NCBI GenBank assembly: GCA_963662615.2
Contig: CAXXSR010000002.1
Coordinates: 320,001-384,000 of the forward strand
Origin: Dehalococcoidia bacterium
Lineage (GTDB): Bacteria > Chloroflexota > Dehalococcoidia > Bin125
Length of the DNA: 64,000 nt
Direction of reading: 5' to 3'
The notes below the pieces were generated by a model. That model searched no databases and had not been told where the DNA came from. It worked only from the letters and a program-made list of their open reading frames with translations. Made by a program: the position numbers and the translations under genes. Positions 5,409 through 8,527 of the stretch are shown piece after piece (the stretch's first letter is position 1; every line of letters begins with the position of its first letter).

Positions 5409-7163
5409 TTAACGGATGAATCCCTCATAGTGCCGCATGAGCAGCTGCGCCTCCACCTGCTTCATAGTGTCCAGCGCGACGCCCACCACGATCAATAAGC
5501 CCACGCTGGAGAGGGTCAACGAGCGGCTGTCCGGGATGAACTCCGTGGTCAGAAACGGGACGATGGCGACGAAGCCCAGGAACAGGGCGCCGGCGAAGGT
5601 AATACGGAAGAGGACGCGGTTGATGTAGTCCTGCGTGGGCCGCCCCGGCCGGATGCCGGGGACGAACCCGCCCTGCTTCTGCAGATTCTCCGCCAGATTC
5701 TGCTGCTGGAAGGTGATCAGCGTGTAGAAGAAGGTGAAGATCACGACCAGGAGGAAGGAGAGCGCCCAGTAGAGCGGGCGGCCGGGCGAAAAGTTGGTCT
5801 GCACCCAGTTCGCGGCGCGGGCGATCCAGGCCGGCCGCTCGCCCACTGTTTGTCCTTCCACTTCGGGCGTGAAGGCGCTGTCGGGCTCATCGAGATGGGT
5901 AGGCACCCGGGTGGCGGCGATGAAGGTCCCCTCAAGATCTTCGAGCTGGATGAGCTTCGATCCGAGATCGTTGTTCTCCACGGTCCAGGTGGGGAGGAAT
6001 TCGCCGGTGGTCGCGTCCAGGCGGGTCTCGACGAACGTCAAGACGTCGGCGTCGCTGTCGCCGTTGATGCGATCGAGCACGTCGCCGAAGGTGTCGTCCG
6101 CGGCGGCATAGCTGATCTCCGCGTCGTTGACGCGGAAGCGGCCCTCCGGGCTGATCGCGGGGAACGCGTCGACGAGGAGGATGTCCTCGGTCTCATCCTC
6201 GGCGAAGGGGACTTCGACCAACGCCTTGGTGCTGGCGTCGTCGCCGCCGGCCACGGCGCCCTCAATATAGCCGGCAATGACGGAGGGGAAGATGATGATG
6301 GAGAAGGCGAATATCAGCGGGATCATACCGGCGCTGTTGACGCGCAAGGGGATATAGCTCTGTCCGCTCTGGCGATACATGCGCCCACCGCGAAAGACAC
6401 TGCGGGCGTACTGGACGGGGATGCGGCGCTGGGCCTCCTGGAAGAAGACGATGAGAGCGATCAAGGCGACGGCGATGAAGAGGACGATGGCCACGCCGCC
6501 GGCGCCGGTGTCGCTGAGGCGAATGGAGTTAAAGAGGGTAGGGAAGCTGGCCAAGATGCCGCCGAAGATGATGAGGGAGATGCCGTTGCCGATCCCCTTC
6601 TCCGTGATCAACTCGCCCAGCCAGATCAAGAACATGGTGCCGGCCGTCAGGGAGATGATGGCGGAAACGGTGGGGAGGGCGTCGGATCCGCTGAAGCCAA
6701 TGCCGGTGATCGCGTTGGCGTTCTCCAGGAGCAGGAGCTGGCCGTATCCCTGCACGACGGCCATGGGGACGGCGGCCCAGTAGGTGTAGAGCTGGATGCG
6801 GTTGCGCCCCTGCTCCCCCTCGCGGGCGAGCGCTTGCAGCCGCGGCACCATGGGCGTGAGCAGCTGCATGACGATGGAGGCGGTGATGTAGGGATAGACG
6901 CCTAGGGCGACGATGCTGAGGTTCTCCAAGCCACCGCCGCTGAAGAGGTTGAGGAAGCCGAGCACCGGGTTGTTGTCCAGGGCGCTGTCCAGCTGCGCCA
7001 ACTGCACGTTGGGTACCGGGATGTGCGCCACGAAGCGAAAGATGATCAGCATGGCCAGGGTGAAGGCGAGCTTGAGCCGGACGTCTGGCTGACGCCAGGC
7101 GTCCACCATCGCTTGGAGCAAGCGTGGTCTAGTGGGACTCTGCGCTGCTTGCGCGCGCTGCAT
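5409..7163 (-). CDS. secY: Preprotein translocase SecY, 584 aa, with ~140-aa inserted domain
   Basis: SIVALGVYPYITASI, GIGNGISLIIF, AGMIPLIFA, FVPGIRPG; ATG 7163 preceded by AAGGAG. Confidence 0.97.
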   Translation of the reverse strand: MQRAQAAQSPTRPRLLQAMVDAWRQPDVRLKLAFTLAMLIIFRFVAHIPVPNVQLAQLDSALDNNPVLGFLNLFSGGGLENLSIVALGVYPYITASIVMQLLTPMVPRLQALAREGEQGRNRIQLYTYWAAVPMAVVQGYGQLLLLENANAITGIGFSGSDALPTVSAIISLTAGTMFLIWLGELITEKGIGNGISLIIFGGILASFPTLFNSIRLSDTGAGGVAIVLFIAVALIALIVFFQEAQRRIPVQYARSVFRGGRMYRQSGQSYIPLRVNSAGMIPLIFAFSIIIFPSVIAGYIEGAVAGGDDASTKALVEVPFAEDETEDILLVDAFPAISPEGRFRVNDAEISYAAADDTFGDVLDRINGDSDADVLTFVETRLDATTGEFLPTWTVENNDLGSKLIQLEDLEGTFIAATRVPTHLDEPDSAFTPEVEGQTVGERPAWIARAANWVQTNFSPGRPLYWALSFLLVVIFTFFYTLITFQQQNLAENLQKQGGFVPGIRPGRPTQDYINRVLFRITFAGALFLGFVAIVPFLTTEFIPDSRSLTLSSVGLLIVVGVALDTMKQVEAQLLMRHYEGFIR

Positions 7164-7614
7164 CCAACTCCTTGACGGAGCCGCCGGCGGCTTCGATCTT
7201 GGCCCGCGCGGCCGCAGAGACCTTGGGCGCCTGCACCGCGAGGGGGTGATCGAGTTCGCCGCCGGCAAGCACTTTGAACGGCTCTTCGGCGCTCTTGAGG
7301 AGGCCGGCCTGCACCAGGGATTCGGCGGTCACCTCAGCACCGGCGGGGAAGCGACGATTGAGCGCGATCAGGTTAATGGGCGTGTACTCCACTCGTCGCG
7401 CGTTGGTGAAGCCGCGCCGGTGCGGCATCTTGCGAATGAGGGGCATTTGGCCCCCCTCGAAGCCCACGCGGAGATCCTTGCCGGAACGCGACTTTTGGCC
7501 CTTGAGGCCACGACCGGAATAGGTCCCGGTGCCGGAGGCGTTGCCGCGCCCGATTCGCTTGCGAGGCCGTTGGGCGCCCGTCGGCGAACGGAGATTGTTC
7601 TGGCGTAGCGGCAT
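7129..7614 (-). CDS. rplO: 50S ribosomal protein L15
   Basis: GRGNASGTG...GFEGGQMPL. Confidence 0.98.
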   Translation of the reverse strand: MPLRQNNLRSPTGAQRPRKRIGRGNASGTGTYSGRGLKGQKSRSGKDLRVGFEGGQMPLIRKMPHRRGFTNARRVEYTPINLIALNRRFPAGAEVTAESLVQAGLLKSAEEPFKVLAGGELDHPLAVQAPKVSAAARAKIEAAGGSVKELDAARASSAESH

Positions 7615-7837: not shown

Positions 7838-8527
7838 CTAGGCAGGCGAGTTCGGCCCCGTGTCCGCCACGGCCTGCTGGGCGGGCGCCGTCTCCGCAGC
7901 GGGTGCGGGCGGGGCGCTCTCCGCGGGGGGCGGGGCGCCTTCCCCCGCGGCGCCGGCGGTCGCCGCTGCCGTGGGGGTCTGCTCCGGGGCCGCAGGGGGT
8001 GGTGCCGGCAGGCGACCGGCGAGGCGCAGCCGTTCCAGCCGCGCCTCTCGTGGGTCGCGCATTTGACTCAGCCCCACCATGGTGGCCTGCACCACGTTGA
8101 TGACGTTGTTCGAGCCCAGGGATTTGGTGAGCACGTTGCGGACGCCGGCGGCCTCCAGGATGGCGCGCACGCCCCCGCCGGCGATGACCCCGGTGCCGGG
8201 CGCGGCCGGCTTCAGGAGGACGCGCGCGGCCCCGAAGTCCGCGGTGAGGACGTGCGGGATGGTGCCATTGCGCATGGGGACGCGGATCATGTTGCGTCTG
8301 GCGATGGTGGAGCCTTTGCGGATGGCTTCCGGCACTTCGTTGGCGCGGCCCAGGCCCACGCCGACCTGCCCTTTGCCGTCTCCGACGACAACCACGGCCG
8401 TGAAGGAGAAGCGGCGGCCGCCCTTGACCACCTTGGCCACCCGGTTGATGGCGACCACTTTCTCGGTCATGTCGTCGCGCGGGCGATCATCTCGCCCCGG
8501 GCGACCTCGGTCGTACCCTCTGACCAC
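7838..8527 (-). CDS. rpsE: 30S ribosomal protein S5 with Ala/Pro-rich C-tail
   Basis: [25 protein letters not shown]. Confidence 0.98.

Follow-up and report, generated by a model that had tools for sequence, protein, structure and literature searches.

In one family of uncultured Dehalococcoidia, the exterior TM7-TM8 loop of SecY holds a domain whose core is homologous to Flagellin_IN-type modules of FliD, the flagellar cap

The 64,000-nucleotide stretch of DNA analysed here (the window; Dehalococcoidia bacterium, assembly GCA_963662615.2, contig CAXXSR010000002.1, positions 320,001 to 384,000) contains a secY gene whose product, the channel of the Sec translocon, carries an additional domain of about 140 residues between transmembrane helices (TM) 7 and 8. 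The gene lies on the minus strand within an open reading frame (ORF) at 5409..7268 and begins at the ATG at 7163, a start that is common to the full-length SecY sequences of the family to which this genome belongs. The protein matches the whole Pfam SecY profile (PF00344) with 328.7 bits against a cut-off of 32.2, although in two stretches, the first of which stops at residue 304 because the insert interrupts the match; it was the single SecY match in a search of the genome. The AlphaFold2 (AF2) model of the full-length protein (predicted local distance difference test score, pLDDT, 72.3; predicted template modelling score, pTM, 0.58) contains the ten-helix core, the plug region, the 6/7 hairpin and the 8/9 loop. 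The helices of the model were assigned to TM1-10 from known SecY structures, and on this basis we take TM7 to be a helix of the lateral gate. SecY proteins of the other families of the same class (16/16) lack the insert: they align to residues 1 to ~303 and ~444 to 584, the two halves being adjacent in their genomes, and their TM7-TM8 loop of ~20-25 amino acids corresponds to residues 444-465 here. Because these relatives stop at ~303 and resume at ~444, the insert was defined as residues 304-443. The gene and its parts are the following.

5409..7163, minus strand: secY, 584 codons plus stop (Pfam SecY, E 4.9e-98).
6249..6335, minus strand: TM7 (residues 277-305), the lateral-gate helix, which is a helix in the AF2 full-length model and ends at the start of the insert.
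5835..6254, minus strand: the whole insert (residues 304-443, 140 amino acids), absent from SecY of 16 sister families.
6234..6254, minus strand: N-linker (residues 304-310), with pLDDT below 50 for residues 301-308 and for insert residues 1-7.
5904..6233, minus strand: predicted folded beta-rich domain (residues 311-420), pLDDT 84-93, six strands and three short helices.
5901..6152, minus strand: core homologous to the Flagellin_IN-type module of FliD (residues 338-421), from insert columns 35-118 in hhalign and from BLASTP.
5835..5903, minus strand: C-linker (residues 421-443), pLDDT 56-75 in the full-length model and below 50 in the insert-only model.
5700..5831, minus strand: native loop helix (residues 445-457) and TM8 (residues 463-488), both AF2 helices that are also present in SecY without the insert.

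A preliminary description of this locus, made from the sequence alone, had reported a 584-residue SecY with an acidic, presumably folded insert of ~140 residues at 5830-6260, which is nearly the interval 5835-6254 determined here. The length given for the insert holds, but the landmark that had been used for its C-terminal limit lies ~20 amino acids past the true end and is preceded by the native loop. When the insert was modelled alone, its residues 8-122 reached block-mean pLDDT values of 77-97 and formed six strands and three short helices, and the full-length model repeats these elements with the confidence listed above. The two models show ~110 residues of the insert as a compact beta-rich domain, in agreement with the earlier statements that the insert is not of low complexity and that it folds within the extracytoplasmic TM7-TM8 loop. 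In the full-length model, the region of TM7 and TM8 is flanked by the cytoplasmic beta-hairpin 6/7 loop (residues 248-271) and the 8/9 loop, and the insert lies on the extracytoplasmic face, where it separates TM7, the lateral-gate helix, from the native helix of the loop that precedes TM8. An alignment of 20 family inserts contains 28 invariant columns. The best conserved segment of the insert is the C-linker, with a majority-residue fraction of 0.86 (residues 421-444) compared with 0.73 for the domain (59 sequences); this suggests that the linker is in contact with something that the models do not show.

Support for the junctions, on which the preliminary description had made the insert depend, came from three other studies, in which exact contigs cross both of them (5715-6308 in runs X3 and X5, and 5658-6308 in run X7). 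After removal of duplicates, 59 distinct insert-bearing SecY sequences from ~10 genera were obtained, two partial and all in frame, and no loss, truncation or frame shift of the insert was found among them. A contiguous match to residues 1-584 of our SecY, at 71-79% identity, was found in 22/24 family genomes, and a further genome covers residues 168-584; the one genome of the 24 without a SecY match is 79% complete and consists of 450 contigs. Every family genome in which SecY was matched carries the insert. The distribution in Dehalococcoidia, which had been raised as a question earlier, proved to be sharply delimited: in a class-wide sample of 301 genomes, a full-length insert match was detected in 18/18 family genomes, our own included (E 1e-64 to 6e-77), and in 0/283 genomes outside the family. 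The insert is also carried by 51 species-representative metagenome-assembled genomes labelled Dehalococcoidia or Chloroflexota, which fits the assignment to Dehalococcoidia in the preliminary description, and it occurs in complete single-contig genomes. The read data further contained 'joints' with short sides (20-42 letters) and 90% likeness; rather than deletion variants, we take these to be SecY genes of other organisms aligned on the conserved flanks. A contig from an RNA library (5802-5973) crosses one junction by 33 letters, which is a weak hint of expression, as DNA carry-over is possible. It might be argued that the insert is not part of the mature protein, either because the assembly is wrong or because an intein or some other element is excised once the protein has been made. 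We consider this extremely improbable, given that both junctions are bridged by exact contigs from the three other studies, that the insert is found in complete single-contig genomes, that no intein or Hint match appeared in our protein or in 20 family inserts when all Pfam families were searched at E <= 10, and that the homologue of the insert is a common type of extracellular module.

This homology first came to light when residues 297-421 of SecY unexpectedly matched a frame of 784 codons in the genome of a sister family, a frame that encodes FliD with its FliD_N and FliD_C domains. In BLASTP, the insert aligned with the centre of this FliD with 40% identity over 84 amino acids (E 7e-10) and with the FliD of its own genome with 33% identity over 78 amino acids (E 6e-7). 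The latter is encoded on the plus strand at L022:496-2520, ~73 kb from the window. A profile built from 20 family inserts produced only weak matches outside the family, in 29/283 genomes, and all of those fetched (20/20) were FliD. The FliD module that is matched adjoins FliD_C, and a second, more N-terminal FliD module matches only partly. Comparison of the insert with the FliD modules by hhalign yielded a probability of 97.7% (E 2.2e-12, 75 columns, 40% identity). The aligned FliD modules themselves match Pfam Flagellin_IN (PF07196) at E <= 1 in 13/20 cases (best 1e-9), and member 1 of this set reaches 35.7 bits (cut-off 22.7). According to PMC9751261, the Flagellin_IN motif is named for an Ile-Asn pair at its centre; this pair (I64, N65) is invariant in the 20 family inserts and is aligned with the pair of the FliD modules. 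FliD_N and FliD_C were not found by Pfam in the SecY protein. Altogether, these results indicate that the insert has a core homologous to the central, Flagellin_IN-type module of the flagellar cap protein, which is flanked there by FliD_N and FliD_C, and the resemblance to FliD and flagellin IN segments noted in the preliminary description is a real homology. The FliD of this genome contains two IN-type modules, and the genome also has two flagellin_N matches.

Searching 1.84 billion representative proteins with the insert profile resulted in 111 matches at E <= 1e-3, among them one full-length SecY, several SecY fragments and FliD proteins with E-values of ~1e-10 to 1e-3. Sampled matches of 445-800 amino acids were all FliD (10/10), and 4/6 of the sampled top matches that are not SecY (five of 1109-2452 amino acids and one of 958) carry 4-8 Flagellin_IN repeats. 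Use of the Flagellin_IN module is therefore not confined to flagella but extends to proteins that resemble pilus components or adhesins. The giant repeat proteins are P0010 (2452 amino acids), P0014, P0016 and P0019; P0010 combines a Tad (TadE/G-like) N-terminus with seven IN repeats and a C-terminal VWA domain. In P0046 (723 amino acids), a further FliD, the FliD_C region is interrupted by an F5/8 type C domain (discoidin, of the sugar-binding type), so that here, too, the cap protein bears an additional domain. At the level of structure, a Foldseek search of the Protein Data Bank (PDB) with the insert model placed FliD at all of ranks 1-9 (probability 0.41-0.99, E 0.012-0.11), and the solved FliD heads are described in PMC7316729 as beta-rich D2-D3 domains of the cap. 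Sequence and profile searches of the PDB with either the insert or the FliD module gave nothing significant, the best FliD chain having an E-value of 6.5, and among viral models Foldseek returned no match at E <= 0.001 and weak phage tail-like rows only. For residues 306-444, the best cluster in the ESM Atlas scored 0.89, just below the mark of 0.9, with Flagellin_IN on 22% of its members, which we treat as a lead only. A word-based protein search found only three SecY matches.

We regard the identity of the insert domain as a FliD-type module, and its origin from such a module, as highly probable. The data show a single entry of the module into SecY, which took place in the ancestor of this one family of uncultured Dehalococcoidia. 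In a tree of 69 modules, the sampled SecY copies (9 of 20, the window's own copy not being among the 9) form one clade (support 100) whose stem measures 1.86 changes per column. The tree does not settle where this clade attaches among the modules of FliD and of the giant proteins, and the FliD of our genome is no closer to the insert than the FliD proteins of other families. The acidity of the insert, another feature reported in the preliminary description, is shared by the family members compared: the net charge over residues 303-456 is -24 in our SecY and -18 to -29 in 20 relatives, as compared with -10 to +1 in FliD modules. The module turned strongly acidic after its entry into SecY. FliD_C was found in only 2/25 family genomes (G000-G024), namely that of the window and G009, and the flagellar cap gene seems to have been lost from most of the family. 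Because the insert is kept in family genomes in which FliD was not detected, its present role does not depend on the flagellum.

The accessory factors of the Sec pathway were compared between the family and its relatives. SurA_N_3 was above the cut-off in 0/25 family genomes versus 12/16 genomes of other families, and the parvulin domain Rotamase_3 was detected in 0/25 versus 13/16; two weak SurA_N_3 matches within the family are trigger factor, and Rotamase_2 was not found in the genome of the window. The class-wide foldase tally, which includes the unpublished G259, stands at 0/22 for the family. SecD and SecF are both present in our genome, encoded as follows.

L124:1991-3796, minus strand: SecD, on another contig than the window.
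L124:759-2315, minus strand: SecF, on another contig than the window.

In the family, the exterior parts of both proteins are enlarged and acidic. SecD open frames measure 571-659 amino acids in the family compared with 432-565 in 16 other families, and the P1 region spans 355-363 amino acids in 19 family members in an alignment that leaves out L145 and L147. In SecD, additional stretches separate Sec_GG, SecD_1st and the P1 head; judged by eye, the exterior domain of SecF looks doubled. No Pfam family covers the extra parts, and a LysM-like look of one SecD stretch was dismissed because it had no Pfam support. A complex prediction of SecD P1 and SecF P4 with the insert as partner scored 0.01 against a mark of 0.32 and was run with no controls, which makes it uninformative either way.

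What the domain may do at this position was evaluated from these results together. An active role of the insert is favoured because of its family-wide retention, its maintained charge, the 28 invariant columns and the conserved linker. In the mechanism that we propose, the domain would be a permanent exit-side accessory of the translocon, with the short N-linker and the highly conserved 23-residue C-linker tethering it over the channel exit and the side of the lateral gate. There it could receive emerging unfolded chains, as a holdase, as an obstacle to their backsliding or as a docking surface, and its negative surface may hold cations. The most likely role on this analysis would be that of a fixed exit-side holdase or docking module. 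The joint claim, comprising the identity and origin of the domain as well as an exit-side function, is put forward tentatively; an exit-side substrate-handling function, taken on its own part, is possible, if doubtful; and the proposal that a flagellar-cap module has been re-used on SecY as a built-in exit-side chaperone that aids folding or blocks backsliding is, as worded, unlikely. The apparent absence of the foldases, the enlarged acidic exteriors of SecD and SecF and the beta-rich head of FliD are all counted as context consistent with an exit-side role.

Several results weigh against this interpretation. As to identity, Pfam Flagellin_IN has a direct match to the insert in 0/20 members, our own included (none at E <= 10), and Foldseek gave no PDB match at E <= 0.001, its TM scores of 0.27-0.38 being normalised over a query of which one quarter is unmodelled and the matched FliD domain not being specified by the tool. 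The profile likeness anticipated in the preliminary description is borne out by hhalign against FliD modules; in Foldseek, FliD takes the top ranks at E-values short of the mark, and the Pfam profile fails to recognise the insert. As to function, we know of no chaperone activity of a lone Flagellin_IN module, and such modules also build adhesin-like giant proteins. The parvulin foldase is likewise detected in 0/10 genomes of another family (f21) and is patchy in four more (f16, f24, f29 and f38), all five families being without the insert, and the absence of the foldase and the gain of the insert amount to a single event in one lineage; that the insert replaces a lost PrsA/PpiD-type foldase is a weak hint. 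SecD_SecF_C was found in 41/41 genomes, which rules out that the insert replaces a lost SecDF. Finally, the insert diverges several times faster than the SecY core (mean pairwise identity 55% versus 87%), with omega values in close pairs of 0.18-0.57 for the insert and 0.02-0.11 for the core; selection on the insert is purifying but relaxed.

This relaxation relative to the SecY core is also what would be expected if a FliD module had landed by chance in a permissive loop and had added no function, the insert being kept only since it is seldom lost cleanly and misfolding of the loop would do harm. Such a tolerated passenger would fit the variation in length and sequence of the TM7-TM8 loop among relatives without the insert and the long branch that separates the SecY copies from the FliD modules. 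However, 0/59 distinct sequences from ~10 genera have lost, truncated or frame-shifted the insert, omega is below 1 in close pairs, 28 columns are invariant, no net charge outside the range of -18 to -29 was seen and the linker is highly conserved, and we judge this explanation to be improbable. We place on the same level, as not probable either, a role in envelope contact, in which the domain, without touching substrates, would link the translocon to another exterior structure such as the enlarged exteriors of SecDF, an S-layer or other wall polymers, or would act as a spacer that keeps the envelope away from the channel. Flagellin_IN modules do build exposed surface structures, such as the centre of FliD and the giant Tad/VWA proteins, the exterior parts of SecD and SecF are enlarged in the same family, and conservation is higher in the C-linker than in the domain, which a fixed contact would lead one to expect; a plain spacer, on the other hand, leaves the strong acidity unexplained. 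A regulator of the gate or the seal is the least likely of the functions considered, and quite improbable in our view: domain and linker would then form a second lid over the plug or a brake on TM7 that tunes ion leak or gate opening and does not handle substrates. Such a regulator would be suited by the direct attachment of the insert to TM7, a helix of the lateral gate, and by the continuation of the conserved C-linker into the helix that precedes TM8, but the plug region and the remaining core show the conservation seen in relatives without the insert, which gives no sign that a further seal is needed. We rank the exit-side accessory first, envelope or partner contact and the tolerated passenger equally behind it, and the gate regulator last.

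Compared with canonical bacterial SecY (PF00344), the protein of this family retains the full core with ten helices, the plug, the 6/7 hairpin and the 8/9 loop, and it is present in a single copy; it differs in having a folded acidic domain of 140 amino acids in the TM7-TM8 exterior loop, for which sister families have ~20-25 residues. With the Flagellin_IN-type modules of FliD, the insert shares profile homology, the Ile-Asn pair and a predicted beta-rich fold, and its top-ranked structural matches are FliD; it lacks FliD_N and FliD_C and a Pfam match, is far more acidic, has ~9 extra residues in one hairpin, forms a long separate branch and is kept where FliD was not found. The giant Flagellin_IN-repeat surface proteins such as P0010 use the same module outside the flagellum as well, but in tandem repeats within a secreted or pilus-type protein, while SecY carries a single copy in a polytopic channel. 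The known exit-side helpers of the Sec channel, the foldases PpiD/YfgM and PrsA and the P1 head of SecDF, are separate proteins. Our proposed analogy with them, which is no more than an analogy, is that of an exterior surface at the exit or gate of SecY that takes over chains; they have unrelated folds, whereas the SecY domain is built in. A parallel may also be drawn with the FliD head, which acts where the flagellar export channel opens. In Gram-negative YidC, a core factor of membrane-protein biogenesis, the periplasmic P1 domain is likewise a lineage-specific folded exterior domain placed between two helices, and it sets a precedent for such an insertion, although in another protein, fold and lineage.

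SecY is among the most conserved proteins, and in the model organisms that underlie all mechanistic work it has only short loops on the exterior. The insert described here is an unusual addition to this highly conserved channel and of interest to translocon researchers; in a cursory survey of the literature on SecY in Chloroflexi and Dehalococcoidia, on domain insertion and on FliD, we found no publication on a SecY with such an insert. A family-wide, selected and folded domain on TM7 amounts to a natural experiment on the possibilities of the exit side and on the tolerance of the gate for decoration. It is a clear case of the transfer of a domain from a flagellar protein to a housekeeping gene, followed by a change in charge and by survival where the donor gene was not found. 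If the domain handles substrates, a trans-side helper function that is elsewhere performed by PpiD/YfgM, PrsA or SecDF can be fused to the channel; and should the domain prove to be a built-in chaperone, this would be the first SecY with a trans-side substrate-handling domain of its own, and it would occur in a family for which searches detected no foldase of the PrsA/PpiD type.

The genes around secY were named by eye from their translations, with no profile check. They appear to be those for L15 and S5 upstream and for adenylate kinase (adk), methionine aminopeptidase (map) and IF-1 downstream, and by this inspection secY seems to occupy its usual neighbourhood of ribosomal-protein genes, adk and map. 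The GC content across the insert (0.63-0.67) is similar to that of its flanks. Long ORFs with translations rich in Gly, Asp, Arg and Ala run opposite secY, adk and map, for instance at 5850..6905 on the plus strand (351 amino acids); in all likelihood these are not genes but shadow frames that arise from the high GC content of the coding DNA. The S5-like ORF (7838..8527, minus strand; assigned by eye) carries a tail of ~60 residues rich in Ala, Pro and Glu, where the local GC content rises to 0.75-0.78.

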